Shown here piece by piece: positions 1 to 44,659 of a stretch of 45,995 nt of DNA (position 1 is its first letter; each line of letters begins with the position of its first letter). This DNA is from a virus. Lineage: Duplodnaviria > Caudoviricetes. The position numbers and the translations under genes were made by a program. The DNA lies in the IMG/VR virus record IMGVR_UViG_3300048995_000005, positions 1 to 45,995 of that record; one strand, given 5' to 3'. The notes under the pieces were generated by a model. That model saw only the letters and a program-made list of their open reading frames with translations, did not search any database and had not been told where the DNA came from.

Positions 1-134
1 TCGGCATTTTCGTTGCCGTGGTGGACGAGGACATCGACACCACCACCGAAGAGGGCAAGGCCCGCATGCGGGACAAGGCCAACGAGGCCTTCAAGGAACT
101 CATCAAGATCCGCAAGCGCACTCAGGACGGCCTT
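1..134. repeat. Terminal direct repeat, left copy (circular overlap inside the integrase gene)
   Basis: 1-134 matches 45862-45995 except position 8 (T vs C). Confidence 0.95.
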
Positions 135-1679
135 CAGGAGAAGGCCGAAGAGGGCGGCTGGGTCGGAGGCCTCCCGGCATACGGCCTTCAGATCAAGGAC
201 CAGGGCAAGAAGGGTCAGTCCGCACTGGAGGTCTGCCCCTTCGAGGCGATCGTCCTGGAGAAGGCCGCGGAGCTCATCGTGGACAAGGGCAAGAGCGCCG
301 ACGAGACGGCCGCGGCGCTGAACGCCCTGGGATACCGCACCCGTTCGGGCGCCCAGTGGACGGGCGGGAACGTGAAGGCCAAGTTCGCCAACACCGCCAT
401 GCACGGCGTGGTGATCTTCCGGAACACAGACCCGGCCGTCAATGCCGCCCGCGGCAAGCGGGCTACGCGCCTGGGCCATGACGGCCTGGCCGCCCACGGC
501 CAGACCGTGGAGATCCCGTGCCCGCTTCCCCTGCCCATCGAGCGCGTCAGGGCCGTCAGGAGGGCGCTGGAGCGCCGCGCACGCCCCAAGTCGGTCACGG
601 GGCAGGTCTACGCCCTCTCCACGCGCCTGACGGGCGCCTGTGGCGCCCACTACGTGGGCCAGTACCTCAAGGAGGAGGGCAAGCGGGCCTATCGCTGCTC
701 CGGCAGCAAGGCCGGAGGCTGCGAGGACTCGATCATCCTCGCCGATGAAGTCGAGGATGCCGTCTGGGAGTCCTTGGCCGACTATCTGTCGGACGAGGGC
801 ACGCTCCAGGAGCTGGCCCAGCGGTGGATCGGGGACAGCCCGGACCACCAAGAGCAGTACAGGGCCCGGGTGAAGGCTCTGGATGCCGAGATCGAGGAAC
901 TGACCAACGACTCGGCCCAGAAGCTCCTGGCCTTCACCACGGGCAACCAGAGCATCCCGCAGGCGGTGGTGAACGCGGCCCTGGCCGGGCTCACCAAGCA
1001 GGTCGAGGACAAGCAGAAGGAGCGCGGCTTGGCCCAGCACATGCTGGAGGACGCCGAGCGGGCCGCCACCCGCGCGTCGGACATCGCTTCCCTGATCGAG
1101 CTGGCCCGCAAGAACTTGAAGCTGATCAAGGGCGAACGCCGGGCGGACATCATCGAGTTCATGGGGATCAAAGCGGCCGTCATGGGGACTGTCCCCGTAC
1201 GGCAGGGCGGCAGGGCCTGTTCCATCGAGGCGTGGTTCGCCGGCCGGGAGCACGGTGTCCAGGAACTGACAGACGATCTCTGGGCTCAGGTGGCTCAGCA
1301 CGTCCCGCCGTACCAGGTGCGCAAGAACAGCCTGGACCCGCGGGCTGTTGTTGAGGCGACGCTGTTCAAGCTCCGTACCGGCACGGGCTGGGAGTCCCTG
1401 CCGGAGCAGTTCCCCTCCGGCCTGTCCGTACGGGCCCGGGTCAAGAACTGGATCGCCTCCGGCGCCTGGGCGCAGATGATGGAGCCCCTGTTCTCGCCGG
1501 AGGCGGAACGCTTCGAGCGGCCCCTCCTTCCGCCGCTCAAGGTGACGGGCGAGCTGGACCCGAACCTGACCCTCCTGGTGGAGGGACAGAACATTCACGA
1601 TCTTGTTTCCGGCAAGCACTCGCGACCATGCGTGTTCAGCTACGTCATGATCCCTAAAAATCACAGCCTGGCCGCCTGA
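1..1679 (+). CDS. int: Large serine recombinase/integrase, C-terminal part (joins 45504-45995; 678 aa in total)
   Basis: In frame with the YLRVSTEEQ N-terminus across the overlap. Recombinase domain (GGLPAYG..., ALNALGYRTRSGAQW), Zn ribbon (CGAHY..YRC..GC), coiled coil, then an extra DUF4096-like domain. Confidence 0.93.
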   Translation, partial: GIFVAVVDEDIDTTTEEGKARMRDKANEAFKELIKIRKRTQDGLQEKAEEGGWVGGLPAYGLQIKDQGKKGQSALEVCPFEAIVLEKAAELIVDKGKSADETAAALNALGYRTRSGAQWTGGNVKAKFANTAMHGVVIFRNTDPAVNAARGKRATRLGHDGLAAHGQTVEIPCPLPLPIERVRAVRRALERRARPKSVTGQVYALSTRLTGACGAHYVGQYLKEEGKRAYRCSGSKAGGCEDSIILADEVEDAVWESLADYLSDEGTLQELAQRWIGDSPDHQEQYRARVKALDAEIEELTNDSAQKLLAFTTGNQSIPQAVVNAALAGLTKQVEDKQKERGLAQHMLEDAERAATRASDIASLIELARKNLKLIKGERRADIIEFMGIKAAVMGTVPVRQGGRACSIEAWFAGREHGVQELTDDLWAQVAQHVPPYQVRKNSLDPRAVVEATLFKLRTGTGWESLPEQFPSGLSVRARVKNWIASGAWAQMMEPLFSPEAERFERPLLPPLKVTGELDPNLTLLVEGQNIHDLVSGKHSRPCVFSYVMIPKNHSLAA

Positions 1680-10978: not shown

Positions 10979-11062
10979 CATCATGGACGCCGTCGGCCCT
11001 CTCCGGCCGGCAGCGCCCCGTACCTCCGGCTTCATCACCCGGAACCTCTCCTCGGAGCGCAG

Positions 11063-11094
11063 AAAGAGCCACCCTTCGGGGTGGCTCTTTTTTT
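11063..11094 (+). terminator. Rho-independent terminator
   Basis: AAAGAGCCACCC-TTCG-GGGTGGCTCTTT followed by a T run. Confidence 0.9.
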
Positions 11095-11119
11095 GCGTTC
11101 TGGGGTACCTTCCCCGGCC

Positions 11120-36310: not shown

Positions 36311-36481
36311 TCCTCTGAGCCGTCTTCACGTCCTCTTCGCATCCGAAAGAGACGTCTTCCGGTACTCAGATGAGAGTCATTTGAGGATTCATCGAACCGA
36401 TCATGAGCGGTAAGGCAACCCTCATTCATGCAGGTCAGAGTGCATCCTAAAAGAATCATGAAAGAAACCCGAACTGCCCTC

Positions 36482-36511
36482 TTGACTCACATGTGAGTAG
36501 AGGCGCAGTCT
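36482..36511 (+). promoter_or_regulatory. Putative major early promoter with an overlapping palindromic operator
   Basis: TTGACT-N18-CAGTCT, A-rich upstream tract, palindrome ACTCACATGTGAGT at 36485-36498. Confidence 0.6.
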
Positions 36512-36931
36512 GGCACTCCCACCGGGGGACGACGCGAAAGCGGAGGAACCGGGAGGAACCCTGGAGCATCAACCACCCAGACTTCACCGGGTGTTCGAGA
36601 GCTTCGAACAGACGAAGAGCATGGCCCCGTTGGAACCGCAGCCGCGGATCAATTCACGGGCAGGACGCCAGGACATGGCGCAGGGAAATGACCGAGGGGA
36701 TCTCGGTACCACCCCCTGTGGGCACAGGTGGCGTTCCGTCAAGACGATGACGGGCCGTATAGCCCGTCACTCGTCATGCGGGCAGGGAACGCCTCCAGCC
36801 GTACAGGCAATGTCTGGGGCAACCCACACCGGAGTACCGGTTGTACGGCGCTTACCGGGGCGCCCCTGCCCGCTTGATGAGTTGAGATGATCAACTGCAA
36901 GGCTGGCATTTCCTGGAGAGGGGAAATGATC

Positions 36932-37051
36932 ATGAGGTACGAGATCTTCTACGGGCAGCTGTTGACCCGTATCGACCAGTTCCACGCCGACGGCCGCTGG
37001 GCCGCCACGGTCTACGTTCACCGCGCCGAGTACCGCACGTGGGAGGCGTGA
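36932..37051 (+). CDS. Small early protein (MRYEIFYGQ...)
   Basis: GGAGAGG RBS; coding bias. Confidence 0.6.
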   Translation: MRYEIFYGQLLTRIDQFHADGRWAATVYVHRAEYRTWEA

Positions 37052-37053
37052 TC

Positions 37054-37566
37054 ATGAGTGAAGAGGTTGAGCTGAGCGTGGGAGACCGCGTCTGTCACGC
37101 TGACGTCAAGGACGTCGCTGGGACCATCGTGCGCTTCCAGGCGTACCCCATGGTCACGGTCCAGTGGGACTCCACTGGACGGGAGTCCAGCGAGAACATG
37201 CATCTGCTGGTTCCGGCGGTCGAGTACCGCGAGGGCCCCCACGGCTCCGTGAGGCTCTTCGTTGCGGGTGAGGAGTACGGCTTCTTTGGGGTAGAGCTCT
37301 CCGCGAGGGCCGCTGGCGAGTGGTGGGCCCGTCACTTCGCGGCGGGTGGACACCCGCTCACCGAAGAGGAGAGGCAGTCCTCCCGCCGCGACACGTACGT
37401 GATGGAGCACCACATCACGTACCGCGAGCATCTCGGGGGCCCCGGCTACACGCCGGACACGTGGGAGATCTTCCAGGATGGCGCCCGTGTGGGGCTCTAT
37501 CAGACCCTGGAGGGCGCTCAGCACCGCATCGAACGACTCAAGGAGCAGGGAAACCGCTCTGACTGA
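37054..37566 (+). CDS. Early hypothetical protein
   Basis: GGAGG RBS; SH3-like N-terminus. Confidence 0.7.
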   Translation: MSEEVELSVGDRVCHADVKDVAGTIVRFQAYPMVTVQWDSTGRESSENMHLLVPAVEYREGPHGSVRLFVAGEEYGFFGVELSARAAGEWWARHFAAGGHPLTEEERQSSRRDTYVMEHHITYREHLGGPGYTPDTWEIFQDGARVGLYQTLEGAQHRIERLKEQGNRSD

Positions 37567-37682
37567 CCCTGTAAGAGCCATCGGGCGTACGGACTTGAGC
37601 CGTACGCCCTTTTGGTTCCGCAGGAACCACCCCTGGAAGTGATGAGCCAGGGGCCACATGATCAATGGAGAGGTTGATCATG
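37564..37682 (+). promoter_or_regulatory. Structured early leader module, copy A
   Basis: Long hairpin, then TGATGA-loop hairpin, then SD-in-loop hairpin. Confidence 0.8.
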
Positions 37683-38093
37683 AACATCAGCGAGCGTCGC
37701 GAATACGCGACAGGCATTCAGGCCTCACAGGCGTACACCACGTACGAGCGTGAGATCAACGGCACGCTGTATCGCCTCGTGTCTCACGAGGACATGTACA
37801 CGGGCAAGCGGCTCGGCATCTCCGTCAGCCGCATGACGGGCCCGGACAAGGCCGTGAAGATTCACAACTTCGGCCGCCCCGTGACCCGGTGGGGCACTCC
37901 TGAGCCGCAGAGCGGCTACACCCCCTGCGCGTGCCGTGACTGCATGGACACCACGGTGTCCAGCGACATGAGCAAGCCGGAGCTGTGCTCGGAGTGCAAG
38001 GACGCGGGATGCACGGCCATCGCGCCGTACAACGCGGGCGTCCAGTTCTGCACCACGTACGAGTGCCAGCGCGACGACGCGTACGGCGCCTGA
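37680..38093 (+). CDS. Early Cys-rich hypothetical protein
   Basis: RBS; CACRDC..CSEC..C. Confidence 0.7.
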   Translation: MNISERREYATGIQASQAYTTYEREINGTLYRLVSHEDMYTGKRLGISVSRMTGPDKAVKIHNFGRPVTRWGTPEPQSGYTPCACRDCMDTTVSSDMSKPELCSECKDAGCTAIAPYNAGVQFCTTYECQRDDAYGA

Positions 38094-38095
38094 CC

Positions 38096-38239
38096 ATGGA
38101 CCAGCAACGCGAGGACATGATCATTGCCCGTGCTGCCGATTTGTATCGGCAGTGGGAGGCGCGTCCCTGGCACGCAAAGCTCAGGGGCCGCATGCGCGCC
38201 GCATGGCAGCGGTTCCGTATCGCCCGGAAGGGGTGGTGA
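38096..38239 (+). CDS. Small early protein
   Basis: Fills the gap; GTGA coupling. Confidence 0.5.
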   Translation: MDQQREDMIIARAADLYRQWEARPWHAKLRGRMRAAWQRFRIARKGW

Positions 38240-38418
38240 GCGTGAAGGCCAAGTTCGTACGGCTGTACACAACGGGCTCTGGAGTTCAGTTCATGGTGTT
38301 CGAGGGTCCCGAAGGGCGTCGTATCGACGTCAAGACCCGGGCAGATCGACACTCCGTCCCTCTGCTCACTCGCGCCGAGGCCAAGCAGGAGGCGATTCGA
38401 CGCCTCACCGCTGCCTGA
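38236..38418 (+). CDS. Small early protein
   Basis: Coupled start; ends at the next leader. Confidence 0.6.
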   Translation: MSVKAKFVRLYTTGSGVQFMVFEGPEGRRIDVKTRADRHSVPLLTRAEAKQEAIRRLTAA

Positions 38419-38540
38419 TCATCCGCCGCAGCATCGGGTCCGCACTCACGGGTGCGGGCCCCCTTGCTCTTACGGATGAGAGCACGCACGGGAAGTGATG
38501 AGCCCGCGCGCCGCATGGTTGATGGAGAGGTCACACCATG
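38416..38540 (+). promoter_or_regulatory. Structured early leader module, copy B
   Basis: Same fold as copy A with diverged, compensatory sequence. Confidence 0.75.
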
Positions 38541-38924
38541 ACGTACGAGATTGAGATCATCAAGCGCGTCGTCACGTACTACGGCAGCGACGGGGCATGG
38601 CTCGATGGCTCGCATGTCGAGCTGGAGACGCCGGACACCGAGACCCTGGAGTACGACGCCGCGGAGGACGCGGAGGAGCACGGTTCGCCCATCGGGTGGG
38701 CCGTCGACATGCTGGACCGTACGGACGTCGTAGAGGCCAGCATGTGGCCCATCACGGACCAGGTCCAGGAACACAACTGGTTGCACGGCACGTACGCCGA
38801 CCCGTACCAGGGCCCCGGGCGTCACGACACGGAGACGACCGCGCGCTTGATCGGCGACTGGACCCCCGAGGAGCGCGCTCAGGTGTTCCGCGCTGCCGTC
38901 CGCACTGACCAGCATGGGGTGTGA
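38538..38924 (+). CDS. Acidic early protein
   Basis: RBS; coding bias. Confidence 0.75.
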   Translation: MTYEIEIIKRVVTYYGSDGAWLDGSHVELETPDTETLEYDAAEDAEEHGSPIGWAVDMLDRTDVVEASMWPITDQVQEHNWLHGTYADPYQGPGRHDTETTARLIGDWTPEERAQVFRAAVRTDQHGV

Positions 38925-38926
38925 TC

Positions 38927-39208
38927 ATGGCCCTGACGCTCGCCAAGATCTACGCACCCGGTACCCGGGTGACGCTCGATGACCCGGACTACGGCACGTG
39001 GCACGGCCGTGTGGTGGTGTGCCTCTGCAAGCGGCACGTCTGGCAACAGCAGGTCGGGGAGGGTGGTCCCGGCCGCGAATGCGGGCACGCACGGTGCGGT
39101 TACCCCAGGGCCGCGGAAGCCTGCCCGTGGCCCATGCACGTTGTCTGGGACAACGAGAACGAGTCGCACCAGGGCATGGACGGCATGACCGCCGTGACGA
39201 CGCCGTGA
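38927..39208 (+). CDS. Early hypothetical protein
   Basis: Coding bias; Cys/His residues. Confidence 0.6.
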   Translation: MALTLAKIYAPGTRVTLDDPDYGTWHGRVVVCLCKRHVWQQQVGEGGPGRECGHARCGYPRAAEACPWPMHVVWDNENESHQGMDGMTAVTTP

Positions 39209-39297
39209 GCGCCGTTGTGACGGTCTTCTGGGACGTCGTGGCAGTGCTGGCCATGGCCGGTGTCGCGCAGCTTCTATGCGGCCACCACAGGACGCAC

Positions 39298-39417
39298 TGA
39301 CCCTGTAAGAGCCATCGGGCGCCCGTCTCGTACGGGCGCCCTCTTGGTTCCGCAGGAACCACACCGGTGGCCTGATGAACCACCGGCGCATTGCTGCATG
39401 GAGAGGTGCAGATCATG
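39298..39417 (+). promoter_or_regulatory. Structured early leader module, copy C
   Basis: Shares ACTGACCCTGTAAGAGCCATCGGGCG and TTGGTTCCGCAGGAACCAC with copy A. Confidence 0.8.
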
Positions 39418-39624
39418 AGCGTGACCCTGAACAAGACCCGTGCCGGCATCCGGCACTCCGACGGAACGCGGGACCGGCGCTACACGGTCGCGCTGGAGTA
39501 CTGCGGGTACGAGACCCCCCGCCTGGTCGCCCGCTTCTGCGGGCACTGGATTTCGTCTCACAAGACCGAGTCCGCGGCATGGGCCGCAGCCCAGCGCCAC
39601 ATGGCGCGGCGGTGGTCGGCATGA
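39415..39624 (+). CDS. Early hypothetical protein
   Basis: RBS; YTVALEYCG..VARFCG.WI. Confidence 0.7.
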   Translation: MSVTLNKTRAGIRHSDGTRDRRYTVALEYCGYETPRLVARFCGHWISSHKTESAAWAAAQRHMARRWSA

Positions 39625-39947
39625 CCAAACGTCAGCAAGCCCGGGAGGCCTGGGAGACCGCGCAGCAGCGCGCTACGGCCGCGTTCACGTGGCCCATGGA
39701 GGAACCCCGGCCCGACCCGTCCAAGGACCCTCAGTACCCGTACTACGCCAGCGAGGAGCGCTACCAGCTGACGCTTGCGGACGAGGCGAGCTCGTACGTC
39801 GTGGCGAAGTGGGCTGAGAGGCGAGACGACTTCAACCCGGACACGGACGCGCGGCTGTACGTCCTCAAGGGCGTACCGGAGGACTCCGGAGAGGGTGCGA
39901 TCTACACACCCGAGTACCTCAAGCGACGCTCCGCCGGCGAAGCCTGA
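39621..39947 (+). CDS. Early hypothetical protein
   Basis: ATGA overlap. Confidence 0.7.
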   Translation: MTKRQQAREAWETAQQRATAAFTWPMEEPRPDPSKDPQYPYYASEERYQLTLADEASSYVVAKWAERRDDFNPDTDARLYVLKGVPEDSGEGAIYTPEYLKRRSAGEA

Positions 39948-40130
39948 CCCCACAGACCCGGCGCTATCCCCCCGGCGCCGATGAGAGACCCCTGCCCCCC
40001 TCCCCTTGGGCAGGGGTCTCGCCCCACCAAGTCCGTGCGTTCGCATGTCCACGCGTCTGCCACCTCTCCGGTGGACGCGTGGATTTGGGTCCGCACGGGC
40101 CAACACGCCATGACCTACGGAGAGGTAGCA

Positions 40131-40460
40131 ATGGCCAACACCGAAGGGCTCCAGAAGACGCTGGAGCACATCAAGGAGCACCCGGGCGAGTGGAACCAAG
40201 GGAGTTGGTCCACGTGCTTCGCGGGGGCCTCCCTGCGGGTCCTCAAGGGCGCCGTCGTCGTCGAGTCCACATGCTGCCGACTTTGCGACGACCTGGAGAT
40301 TGATGGCTCCCCCATACAGGGCAACGGCATCGCGACCCTCGCCCAGGAAGCCCTGGGGCTGACGGATGAGCAGCGGAGCGTGCTCTTCAACGGAAACAAC
40401 GACCTGGAGCGCATCACGGCCCTGGTCGCGGAGTTCACCGCGGAGCAGGTGCCCGCATGA
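40131..40460 (+). CDS. Early hypothetical protein
   Basis: RBS; HPGEWNQGSW..CFAG..A..ALGL..LF. Confidence 0.75.
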   Translation: MANTEGLQKTLEHIKEHPGEWNQGSWSTCFAGASLRVLKGAVVVESTCCRLCDDLEIDGSPIQGNGIATLAQEALGLTDEQRSVLFNGNNDLERITALVAEFTAEQVPA

Positions 40461-40864
40461 TCGAGCTGACCATGGAGCGGACCAAGGAGCTCTTGGCCGA
40501 AGCCGTCGCGGAACGCGGCGCGGACTACGTCTACACCACGCCGAACGGCACTGTCGTTACGCCGGAGAGTGGCCTCAGGTGCCTCTACGTCCACCGCAAC
40601 AACGCGGAGGGTGAGTTGCCCGAGCCCGTAGCGGGCTGCATCGCGGGCCTTGTGCTGCACAAGGCGGGGGTCTCCCTGGAAGCCCTCAGGGGCCACGAGG
40701 ACCAGCCCGCAGACGACGTTCTGGAGCGCCTGGAGACCAACGAGGTAGCGCGCGGCGATGCGGCCGTACGAACGCTCCTGCGCAACGTCCAGCGGCGCCA
40801 GGACGACGGGCAGCCCTGGGGCCAGGCCGTGGCCAATTCGCTGGCCGGGGAGGCCAAGGCATGA
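40457..40864 (+). CDS. Early hypothetical protein
   Basis: ATGA overlap; GADYVY..CLY..GCIAG..QD.GQPWG. Confidence 0.75.
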   Translation: MIELTMERTKELLAEAVAERGADYVYTTPNGTVVTPESGLRCLYVHRNNAEGELPEPVAGCIAGLVLHKAGVSLEALRGHEDQPADDVLERLETNEVARGDAAVRTLLRNVQRRQDDGQPWGQAVANSLAGEAKA

Positions 40865-41199
40865 ACGAGATCGACTACGCGGCACGCGTCGCCAAGGGCG
40901 TGGCCCTGCTGGACGAGAAGAAGCCCGGCTGGGAGCGCCAGATCGACCTGGACACGCTCAGCATCTCCTCGCCCGAGAGGTGCGTTACGGCGCAGCTCAG
41001 CGGCGTACGGGACTTCAAGGCAGGCCAGCACCAGCTGGAGCTGGACGACGCTTCATATGTCGCCCACGGCTTCAACGCCGATGCCGAGTGCTCGTGCTGC
41101 GCCCCTCCAGACCTGCCCGAGGGCTACGACCAGGACGAGGCCTACGCCAAGCTCAACGCCCTGTGGCGTGAGGTGATCACGGGCCGGCTGGCGGCCTGA
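40861..41199 (+). CDS. Early hypothetical protein
   Basis: ATGA overlap; GVALLDEKKPGW. Confidence 0.75.
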   Translation: MNEIDYAARVAKGVALLDEKKPGWERQIDLDTLSISSPERCVTAQLSGVRDFKAGQHQLELDDASYVAHGFNADAECSCCAPPDLPEGYDQDEAYAKLNALWREVITGRLAA

Positions 41200-41264
41200 C
41201 CCATCAAGCGACCCCTGCCCGGCGGTGTGGCGAAGCCCGCCGGGTGGGGGTTCATGGAGTCGCA

Positions 41265-41393
41265 ATGCGTCAACAGCGCGTGACCAAGCCCAAGCGAGTG
41301 GCAGACAAGCGCCGTTCTGCGCGGGAGGATGAACCGCAGGGAGAGAAGAAAGAGATCCGCAAGGATCTACGGCACTGGTTCGAGGAGAGGTGA
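41265..41393 (+). CDS. 42-aa basic peptide (MRQQRVTKPKRVADKRRSARE...)
   Basis: GGAG RBS; its stop overlaps the GTG of the next gene. Confidence 0.55.
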   Translation: MRQQRVTKPKRVADKRRSAREDEPQGEKKEIRKDLRHWFEER

Positions 41394-42435: not shown

Positions 42436-42523
42436 GGGCTGGGCCCCGGGTCGCTCCCGGGGCGCCTGGGGATAGGGGGAGATGCACATCAAACCCGAGC
42501 AGGTTCGATTCCTGCCCAGCCCA
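42436..42523 (+). ncRNA. tRNA-like RNA 1 (acceptor stem and T-arm, non-canonical D/anticodon region)
   Basis: GGGCTGG/CCAGCCC-A; GCAGG-TTCGATT-CCTGC. Confidence 0.65.
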
Positions 42524-42544
42524 CGCGCCCGGTAGCTCCGGGCA

Positions 42545-42614
42545 GGGAGGCCGTGACGACGGCACGGTAAAGCACCCGGTGAGGGTGCGAGCGGGTTCGA
42601 ATCCCGCACTCCCA
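42545..42614 (+). ncRNA. tRNA-like RNA 2
   Basis: GGGAG/CTCCC-A; GCGGG-TTCGAAT-CCCGC; two internal hairpins. Confidence 0.6.
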
Positions 42615-42823
42615 CGGGTTCCATGAGAGACGTCATGCCGGCATTCGCGCGCCTTGGGCGTGGCTACCCGGCGACGGGAACAGGACCCGGTGAGTTTCGC
42701 TCCAACCGCATCTCAGGAGGAGCCGTAAGGGTCTGGCCAGCCTGAACCGAAACCAAATGGCCACCGCCCCGCCGGCCCGATGACCGGCGGGGCTTCCCAT
42801 GCCCCGAGGAGAGGAGCACGGCA

Positions 42824-43723
42824 ATGACCTTGCCGCGCAAGATCGAAGCAGACGAGGAACTGGTTCCAGCCAATGATCCGCACTCGCTCCCTAGCGAGTC
42901 GGGGGTCTACCCCGTCACAGCCGAGATGGCCAGTTCCTGGCTCTCGTACCGCAACCATCCGCGGAATCGCCCCCTCAGCCCGTCCGTCTCCGCCCGCTAC
43001 CAGGCGGACATGGAAGGCGGCCGGTGGCGCGAGGGGACCCCCGAGGGCCTGATCTTCGACACCGAGGGCTGGATCGTCTCCGGCCAGCACCGCATGAGGG
43101 CGCAGGCCAACTCCGGGATGACGCTCAGCTGGTGGGTCTTCGTGGACGAGCCCCGCGAGATCTTCGACCACATCGATCAGGGCTTTCGCCGTACCGCGGC
43201 GCACCTGATCCGCGACAAGTACGCCTCGCAGACCGCGGCCGGCGCCCGCCACCTGGCGGCCCTGGCCGACGGGGACCGCTGGGGGATGCCCCGTTACGGG
43301 CGTATCACGACGCCCGAGACGATCGAGGCCTACCACGCCTGGCCGGAGCTGACCTGGTACCTCAAGGACGTGGTGGGCGCGCACTTCGATGCCGGAATAC
43401 CGGCCCCGGCACATCTCGCCGTGATCGCACAGGCGGCCCGCACGGAGCACCGGGACCTGATCCCGGCGTGGCTGGAGGGCGTGAGGACGGGCTACAGCCT
43501 GGACCGCGGTGACCCGCGGGTTCATTTGCGGAATCGGTTCCGCAACGGCTTCGCCACCACCGGCCAGGGCATCAAGCGCGACGTGATGTACGCGCTGATC
43601 GTCAAGGCGTGGAACGCCTACGTGCGAGGCGAGAGCGTGACCGTCCTGGTCTGGCGGAGCGTCGAAGAACTGCCCAGAGTCGAAGGCTCCGGCTTCGAGA
43701 ACATCAAGGAGATTGCGGCGTGA
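42824..43723 (+). CDS. ParB/Srx-like (xGQHR) domain protein
   Basis: VTAEMA..NRPLS..YQADM..GRW..IVSGQHRM. Confidence 0.7.
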   Translation: MTLPRKIEADEELVPANDPHSLPSESGVYPVTAEMASSWLSYRNHPRNRPLSPSVSARYQADMEGGRWREGTPEGLIFDTEGWIVSGQHRMRAQANSGMTLSWWVFVDEPREIFDHIDQGFRRTAAHLIRDKYASQTAAGARHLAALADGDRWGMPRYGRITTPETIEAYHAWPELTWYLKDVVGAHFDAGIPAPAHLAVIAQAARTEHRDLIPAWLEGVRTGYSLDRGDPRVHLRNRFRNGFATTGQGIKRDVMYALIVKAWNAYVRGESVTVLVWRSVEELPRVEGSGFENIKEIAA

Positions 43724-43971
43724 GTACGCCCACGAAGATCACCACCCGCCGGCTGCGTCAGCTTCAGCAGGTGGCCGACAGGCTCACCGACGCCCGGGAG
43801 AAGGCCGACGAAGACATCCTCGTCTTCATCCACGAGGCGAAGGCCGAGGGGCTGAGCAACGCCGCGGTGGCGGGCATGTTCCGCGTGCACGCCACGGGCG
43901 TCCCGGCCAAGGCCGAGAAGGGCGCCGAGATCCTCGCCGAGAGGAAGGGCCGAAGGAAGGGCGACGGGTGA
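43720..43971 (+). CDS. Small HTH-like protein
   Basis: IHEAKAEGLSNAAVAGMFRV. Confidence 0.6.
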   Translation: MSTPTKITTRRLRQLQQVADRLTDAREKADEDILVFIHEAKAEGLSNAAVAGMFRVHATGVPAKAEKGAEILAERKGRRKGDG

Positions 43972-44359: not shown

Positions 44360-44659
44360 ATGCCGCCCAAGAAACGAGTCGACTTGCCAGACCATGTCAG
44401 AGCCGCGGTGCTGGCCGATGTAGGGGTGTCCTACGAGCAGTCGGTCAGCGCAGACGAAGCCGCCAAGATCCGCATCTTCCTCGCCACGGAGCAGGGCCTG
44501 ACCACAGGCGAGATCGCTGAGCAGCTGAACGTCTCACAGCAGAGCGTGAGCCGGTACAGCCGTGAAGGGAAGGAGGCCCTTGCCCGACGTGAACAAACGC
44601 GAGGTCAACACGCTGGTGAAGATCCTCTCAGACCCGGAGAACGAGAACCGGTCGGCTGA
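44360..44659 (+). CDS. HTH DNA-binding protein (candidate repressor)
   Basis: QGLTTGEIAEQLNVSQQSVSRY; first gene of the unit leading to int. Confidence 0.7.
   Translation: MPPKKRVDLPDHVRAAVLADVGVSYEQSVSADEAAKIRIFLATEQGLTTGEIAEQLNVSQQSVSRYSREGKEALARREQTRGQHAGEDPLRPGEREPVG

Follow-up and report, generated by a model that had tools for sequence, protein, structure and literature searches.

The DNA examined here, referred to as the window, is a whole virus record of 46 kb (IMGVR_UViG_3300048995_000005, 45,995 nucleotides), and the subject of this report is a structured element, hereafter the module, that recurs three times (A, B and C) between its early genes. The window terminase is 51-52% identical to those of cluster BF Streptomyces phages (Beephvirinae) and 67-83% identical to those of prophage-like contigs in Streptomyces genomes, and because the window encodes a serine integrase, the phage is best read as a temperate sister group of the cluster BF Streptomyces podoviruses. 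Around the modules is a series of small + strand genes, nearly none of which has a family match, oriented divergently from the structural genes; a blastn search of the module region against named phages returned one 104-nt coding match only.

Each module begins with the TGA stop codon of the gene upstream and has four parts: a long hairpin interrupted by a 2x3 pyrimidine internal loop, an alternative (swap) hairpin that the 3′ strand below this loop forms with downstream sequence and that is mutually exclusive with the long one, a third hairpin whose loop displays TGATGA (the tag hairpin), and a final hairpin displaying the Shine-Dalgarno (SD) sequence GGAGAGG. All these parts had been described in an earlier sequence-only reading of the window and were recovered where it had placed them, including the upper stems of the long hairpin, which differ among A, B and C and stay paired. 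Folding z-scores for A, B and C were −6.3, −2.9 and −3.3 against 200 dinucleotide shuffles, the pattern TGATGA...TGGAGAGG occurred three times in the window against a mean of 0.00 in 100 shuffles, and a covariance model built on 40 copies, these three included, gave exactly three strong matches in the window, all on the + strand.

Table 1 Modules and other features of the window.
Feature	Position	Strand	Parts and remarks
Module A	37564..37682	+	upstream TGA 37564; UC loop strand 37581-82 facing UUU; upper stem 37583-37609; alternative hairpin 37613-37629; tag hairpin 37630-37653 (loop AAGUGAUGAG, TGATGA at 37640); SD/start hairpin 37657-37682 (SD 37667)
Module B	38416..38540	+	upstream TGA 38416; UC loop strand 38434-35 facing CCU; upper stem 38436-38461; alternative hairpin 38465-38484; tag hairpin 38485-38510 (TGATGA at 38496); SD 38524
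Module C	39298..39417	+	upstream TGA 39298; UC loop strand 39315-16 facing UCU; upper stem 39317-39341; alternative hairpin 39345-39361; tag hairpin ~39364-39386 (loop CCUGAUGAA, TGATGA at 39373); SD 39400
Head-of-operon element	36743..36928	+	same three-strand swap as modules; GACGA 36743, CUCGUCA 36770, UGAUGAG 36875-36881; SD 36915
Putative early promoter	36482..36511	+	TTGACT-N18-CAGTCT, read from sequence only; spacer palindrome CTCACATGTGAG at 36484-36496
Candidate antisense RNA	10989..11095	+ (putative)	3′ end of replication arm; anti-SD hairpin, CUCUCC loop at 10999-11004; anti-tag hairpin, CUUCAUCAC loop at 11030-11038; further anti-SD at 11043-11051; U-tailed intrinsic terminator at 11063-11095
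Distal tag-like hairpin	42767..42792	+	loop CCCGAUGA; before SD of 299-aa gene
6C-like RNA match (RF01066)	39952..40025	+	after last gene under module C
Long hairpin	41198..41262		before 42-aa ORF
42-aa Arg/Lys-rich ORF	41265..41393	+	coupled to DUF5753/DUF397 pair
tRNA-like segments (two)	42437..42600	+	T-loop GGUUCGA motifs
Conserved non-coding stretch	42690..42765	+	5′ of distal tag-like hairpin
Small HTH protein	43720..43971	+	paralogue of next row
Small HTH protein	44360..44659	+	paralogue of previous row
Serine integrase	66..1679	+	C-terminal DUF4096 (IS4/5-type) domain

Homologous loci were gathered via the terminase and sequence patterns and then by iterated nhmmer searches, with 103 of the 130 listed matches kept (E ≤ 0.05); the remainder were two reverse-strand duplicates and 25 weaker matches, about six of which look real. 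The 103 distinct homologues lie in 46 phage, prophage or remnant records, with one to six per record, and these counts are lower bounds (at least 103 copies in at least 46 records). Three homologues are chromosomal, and both of those opened lie in remnants of similar small-gene arrays. Single modules stand amid small phage-like gene arrays in Streptomyces chromosomes at L509 5620-5689 and L510 5616-5687 (-), and one small gene of these arrays is, by eye, homologous to the gene following module B. Among the matches listed, those of the pattern TGATGA...SD across whole genomes were unrelated chance occurrences, and those from core-pattern scans of genome and metagenome contigs were mostly chance. 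An Rfam search, proposed earlier as a check, found no family overlapping the modules at E ≤ 5, and a literature search, whose scope did not extend to large supplementary motif catalogues that could hold one, gave no description of these elements.

Covariation across these homologues, the second check that had been proposed, is strong and upholds the fold. Seventy-seven copies were anchored by sequence alone, and 68 of these have a regular upper stem, in which pairing holds at each of positions 1-10 in 64-68 of 68 copies and at position 11 in just 28; the stem is thus fixed in length and free in sequence. The 51 distinct upper stems are 98.8% paired, compared with 72.5 ± 1.3% after partner shuffling, and their wobble bias (18 G-U/U-G against 4 A-C/C-A) favours the mRNA strand. 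A MAFFT alignment of 40 copies had 97.2% of cells paired (78.7% shuffled, 33-48% in slid controls) with double changes at 13 of 19 pairs, the contrast with shuffling being inflated by relatedness among the copies. Below the internal loop, position 1 is an A-U pair and position 11 is paired in all 77 copies, while position 12 is paired in 55. The tail after the upper stem reads CCU in 40 of the 77, UCU in 13, UGU in 10, GCU in 9, UUU in 3 and otherwise in 2, and it pairs as part of the lower stem. Across copies, only a few of the unpaired bases never vary. Gene maps place the modules between same-strand early genes, a coding-like stop lies 1-6 nt 5′ of the copy in 66 of 76 cases, and the SD core is predicted to be unpaired in 83 of 95.

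The mutually exclusive hairpin, present in A, B and C, also covaries in the homologues. In 69 of 74 distinct cases it pairs at least five of its first seven bases, against 46 (maximum 56) when the strands are swapped between copies, and its energy, taken once per strand type, is −7.3 kcal for cognate and −4.8 ± 0.4 kcal for swapped strands. It begins at the first base below the internal loop in 51 of the 77 copies. For uncut RNA the long fold is predicted to be favoured in 60 of 77.

Lytic relatives add a comparison at the level of architecture. The covariance model found no module in four lytic BF records, yet six of seven named lytic BF phages scanned carry one to three GG-UU-[about 10 bp]-UU-CC hairpins each on the early strand, several of them followed by a swap hairpin and an SD; the seventh, Stella, has no clear copy. 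These analogues were found by folding and a descriptor only, and the descriptor also yields background matches with stems of 7-9 bp. Here the geometry of the hairpin has outlived its sequence. In the early arms (-) of lytic BF records L001 and L002, a fixed ribosome-binding motif, CAAGGGRGAGA, precedes most early genes. The section of PMC11536984 describing Abafar mentions neither RNase nor hairpins.

The third hairpin behaves differently from the core. The TGATGA loop, which the sequence-only reading took as part of the shared module, holds for A, B and C and not as a general feature: across the 103 homologues the loops were UGAUG in 11, UGAU[U/C] in 11, YGSCA in 32, other in 4 and unparsed in 45, the last including parser misses. 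Five classes (UGAUG, UGAU[U/C], UGGCA, UGCCA and CGGCA) account for 54 of 103 copies, and copies in the same phage agree in class in 34 of 35 pairs, compared with a shuffle mean of 7.0 and maximum of 17. Core subtypes are mixed within phages (9 of 35 pairs agree) and tag stems are no more alike within phages than between them (0.40 versus 0.42-0.43), and simple duplication therefore fails to explain the tag agreement. The third loop thus appears to be a phage-specific tag, with TGATGA typical only of the lineage of the window phage, although tag class partly follows phage lineage and the classes were defined after inspection of the data. The tag also caps some upper stems, some inserts in the element at the head of the operon (described below) and one distal hairpin in the window, at whose corresponding place two close relatives carry CCUGAUGA and a phage with GUGCCA tags carries GUGCCA. 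A conserved non-coding stretch 5′ of this distal hairpin is common to G004, G017, G011 and G039, and in the relative G021 a tRNA-like sequence lies immediately 5′ of a tagged hairpin. A protein reader of the tags was not found by similarity, gene maps or trees over 25 records, the best trees being those of structural or ParB/HTH-like families with five changes against a minimum of four.

From this combination of position, covariation and geometry, we consider the chance somewhat better than even that the modules are two-state RNA elements serving as processing sites for host RNase III in the early operon. Cleavage by the host enzyme would fall in the 2x3 pyrimidine loop, separating U from C on its 5′ strand and following the three loop bases on its 3′ strand; such a staggered cut would leave two 11-position arms and make the first base of the swap hairpin the new 5′ end. 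The downstream message would then begin with a fully paired hairpin that could shield its 5′-monophosphate end from RNase J/E, followed by the phage-specific loop tag and the ribosome-binding hairpin, and one long transcript of variable accessory genes would become a set of separately stabilised units. E. coli RNase III requires an 11-bp arm, and internal loops steer or limit its cut (PMC1540722); the symmetric register we infer has 10 bp and one mismatch above the loop and 11 positions below it. For S. coelicolor, PMC10126417 describes an RNase III that prefers poly(G)-poly(C) and cleaves a 4/4 internal loop on both sides, and an RNase J with a preference for 5′-monophosphates.

Several observations weigh against this processing model. 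In the symmetric register, G-C and C-G pairs dominate proximal-box position 2 of both arms, which breaks the E. coli AU/UA rule, G-C pairs at proximal-box positions being binding or catalytic antideterminants for that enzyme (PMC1540722); Streptomyces RNase III may not obey this rule (PMC10126417). The alternative fold is predicted to be preferred even before cutting in 17 of 77 copies, including module B, alone among the three in the window (p 0.71), and the swap hairpin is weak in the short copies of L125, L126, L129 and L152. With one nick on the 3′ side, predicted energies still favour the old duplex over the new hairpin in 57 of 77 copies (−13.3 against −8.8 kcal in modules A and C), and capping would therefore require either that both strands be cut or that the upstream strand be removed. 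Cutting both, as is reported for rpsO-pnp, would take away context worth two base pairs and leave the upstream end open to decay, and would in this way aid release. In addition, 26 of the 103 homologues, with variant loops, were left out of the counts, as were nine further copies from that of the upper stem. The earlier proposal of a cut at the internal loop between early genes thus keeps the support of position, covariation, two-turn geometry and lytic BF architecture with the proximal-box rule set against it, while refolding of the new 5′ end into a protective hairpin has the covarying swap strand in its favour and the single-nick energetics against it.

An attenuator, in which the G+C stem terminates or pauses transcription, the two folds act as terminator and antiterminator and the tag is a boxB-like factor site, is an unlikely explanation of the same features. 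The folds are mutually exclusive, a minority of copies having them close in energy; all three upper stems register as terminator-like in a loose scan; and phage-private tags are the pattern of N/boxB systems. Moreover, the Arg/Lys-rich 42-aa ORF of the window, which lies behind a long hairpin and is coupled to a DUF5753/DUF397 gene pair, is conserved in 10 related phages, with no family match. However, the tail is mostly CCU and paired, locked into the lower stem, which makes termination less likely; an intrinsic terminator consists of a G+C hairpin and a free U tract, which the modules lack despite the flags of the loose scan, and ordinary U-tailed terminators exist elsewhere in these phages. 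Terminators need no fixed 10-bp stem, invariant loop or 11-position lower arm. Tag class was followed by no protein family more closely than by lineage, the 42-aa ORF was not accepted as a clean candidate for the tag reader, the basic peptide of a GUGCCA phage resembles that of the window phage, and a paper search on boxB-type antitermination in Streptomyces temperate phages gave nothing.

We also regard as unlikely that the hairpins are bound and left uncut, or cut by another nuclease, and act as intercistronic barriers against exonucleases and RNase E. In favour of this are the G-C pairs of the proximal box, antideterminants for the E. coli enzyme, and the lack of any RNase family match among the 36 non-structural proteins scanned, yet such barriers explain neither a covarying swap strand that starts exactly below the loop nor the same geometry in the unrelated sequence of the lytic BF phages.

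The sequence-only reading had further suggested that the modules are recombination points for swapping accessory genes, and support for this proved thin. Since the genes between the elements vary greatly and three identical upper hairpins are found, in different phages, above lower stems of different types, exchange within modules does take place. A stronger version, in which the elements or tag hairpins act as DNA, as single-strand or cruciform sites that swap accessory cassettes in the manner of integron attC sites, could also draw on the absence of strand preference in tag stems (21 G-U, 27 A-C) and on the fact that TGGCAC and GTGCCA tags are exact reverse complements, in short and long forms alike. 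Against this, core pairing favours the mRNA strand, all tags in one phage point the same way, the geometry persists in lytic phages and long BLAST matches to relatives seldom stop at a module. The recombinase of the window is a serine integrase, with no tyrosine integrase, the enzyme that attC sites require, among the 36 proteins scanned (late structural genes were scanned in part only). We consider DNA sites improbable. That the module is a self-cleaving ribozyme is scarcely credible: it is a repeated, structured, intergenic element of phage early regions and module C has CUGAUGA, yet the hammerhead core is CUGANGA with GAAA round a three-way junction, and the UGAUGA of the modules is a hairpin loop without a GAAA strand to face it. 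Most homologues lack UGAUGA, the unpaired bases that never vary are few and Rfam gave no family.

The exposed tag and SD could have a further use, for which the window contains a candidate partner. Between the last small gene of the replication arm and the endonuclease VII gene lies an element with a C-rich anti-SD loop, a second loop complementary to the tag and a second anti-SD, reading CCUCUCC, all ahead of a U-tailed terminator (z −5.9). Complementarity extends over 7-9 bp between the anti-SD and the cassette SD and over 7-8 bp between the second loop and the tags, and only 2 of 1756 hairpin loops on the + strand of the window match all three tags this well. The element was found at that place in 8 of 15 records examined and in five further prophages. 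In UGAU-tag phages the loop of the element follows the tag (UGAUGA/UCAUCA, UGAUUA/UAAUCA): UUCAUCAC accompanies UGAUGA tags, UAAUCAC accompanies UGAUUA tags and a UGAUC-type loop accompanies UGAUC tags. In seven such phages the cognate loop score is 5.83 against 4.68 when permuted (fraction 0.003), a permutation that overstates independence as the seven comprise about three loop types. The hexamer TGATTA, a rare one, occurs five times in G007, whose loop is UAAUCA, and not in the window, G004 or G016. Start-codon regions were rejected as the loop target, no such match being found (0.44).

The head-of-operon element could offer a second place for such pairing. It uses the same three-strand swap as the modules, in that GACGA can pair with CUCGUCA, which can alternatively pair with UGAUGAG across a variable insert, and the swap strands are followed by an SD hairpin and the first early gene. 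According to the antisense proposal, a small RNA made at the end of the replication arm would dock on the UGAUGA tag and on the exposed SD and so silence the early units jointly when the middle genes come to be transcribed. For the lineage of the window phage we put this forward tentatively, as possible and short of probable. We conjecture that the RNA first targeted the operon head and that the window lineage later copied the site into every cassette.

Several observations count against the antisense proposal. The element was not found at that place in 7 of the 15 records. In phages with YGSCA tags that carry it, the predicted match of loop and tag failed in five of five, with scores of 2.0-3.0; three of the five keep a UCAUCAC loop, which fits only the near-universal head motif UGAUGAG, and scanning whole genomes for loops complementary to YGSCA tags revealed no site that is conserved. 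G006 and G033 loops score slightly higher on the tags of other phages than on their own. The out-of-sample records weigh neither way: none of four viral fragments examined contains a module, and prophage G039 has a UGAUC-type loop in its head element and no module. The strand is a further difficulty: the opposite strand folds better in six of six cases, by 2.5-7.5 kcal, stems closing the anti-SD loop have five U-G against nine A-C/C-A pairs, and the opposite strand reads as an SD and start codon in 10 of 18, with no conserved peptide. The position of the element directly before a + strand U tract speaks for the + strand, which is put forward provisionally, and a reverse-strand gene at the site is unlikely, the peptides diverging after 4-5 codons and 8 of 18 having no start. 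Between the candidate and the terminator, some records (L575 at ~370-415, G014, G035, L642 and L650, with a variant in L621) carry a conserved, structured insert ending in GGAAAC-GUGGUCCAC, which has no Rfam match above threshold.

Joining the two proposals gives a scheme in which RNase III would make capped, tagged units and one small RNA would kiss tag and SD to silence all of them, tag and loop co-evolving between lineages; as a whole we consider it doubtful.

Other features of the region were noted alongside. The putative early promoter was not called by a sigma-70 scan; the palindrome in its spacer, a possible repressor operator, is replaced by a different palindrome at the same place in G016. 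After the last gene under module C, a 6C-like match with two C-rich loops scores 37.9 bits, below the threshold of 47. The two tRNA-like segments were uncalled by ARAGORN and have a weak tRNA-Sec score. No RNA holder is listed for 36400-41300, a negative with no bearing on expression. The predicted recognition helices of the two paralogous small HTH proteins differ among phages, making these proteins candidates for an immunity repressor pair. The serine integrase bears a C-terminal DUF4096 domain.

If the modules are indeed RNase III sites, T7-style early-mRNA processing would extend to actinobacterial phages, and about a hundred natural substrates would be at hand for learning how a G+C-adapted RNase III chooses its sites. 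The cultured lytic phages WRightOn, Immanuel3, Abafar and Manuel, together with an existing S. coelicolor rnc mutant, make processing testable, and the swap hairpin could be a portable design for stabilising processed messages in Streptomyces. If tag and antisense loop do pair, this would be an uncommon instance in which a single phage RNA addresses a whole set of interchangeable accessory genes, and the pair could serve as an RNA-only timing switch or an immunity code.

Early mRNA of phage T7 is cut by RNase III at internal-loop hairpins between genes. The modules resemble the T7 R1.1 site, whose hairpin geometry is given in PMC1540722, and the early mRNA sites of Bacillus phage SP82 mentioned in PMC4838370: in each case an early polycistronic transcript has between its genes a hairpin some two helical turns long, interrupted by an internal loop. 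Unlike these, they have G+C-rich stems that break the E. coli proximal-box rule, belong to an actinobacterial host and add a covarying swap hairpin, a downstream tag hairpin and an SD hairpin, and the cut is predicted from sequence. The nearest host parallel is S. coelicolor rpsO-pnp, where Streptomyces RNase III (AbsB) cuts both sides of the internal loop of an intergenic hairpin (PMC10126417); the loop there is 4/4 in a single copy, whereas that of the modules is 2x3 and repeated, and the module covariance model had no match in the rpsO-pnp regions of two Streptomyces genomes.

The candidate antisense RNA is reminiscent of the c4 RNA of phages P1 and P7, which has two loops, one partly covering ribosome-binding sites and one giving upstream target specificity (PMC5320573). 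A ribosome-binding-site loop paired with a covarying specificity loop is seen in the seven UGAU-tag phages, comprising about three loop types, and not in the five YGSCA-tag phages, to whose tags the candidate does not match. By contrast with c4, its pairing is predicted only, it has no c4 sequence similarity or Rfam C4 family, and, lying where the replication arm ends, it is closed by an intrinsic terminator, with several processed early units as predicted targets. The 6C RNA of Actinomycetota (RF01066) likewise has C-rich loops able to pair with G-rich ribosome-binding sequences. The candidate has no 6C match and no other Rfam match above threshold, and it adds to such C-rich loops a further loop that changes with the tag.

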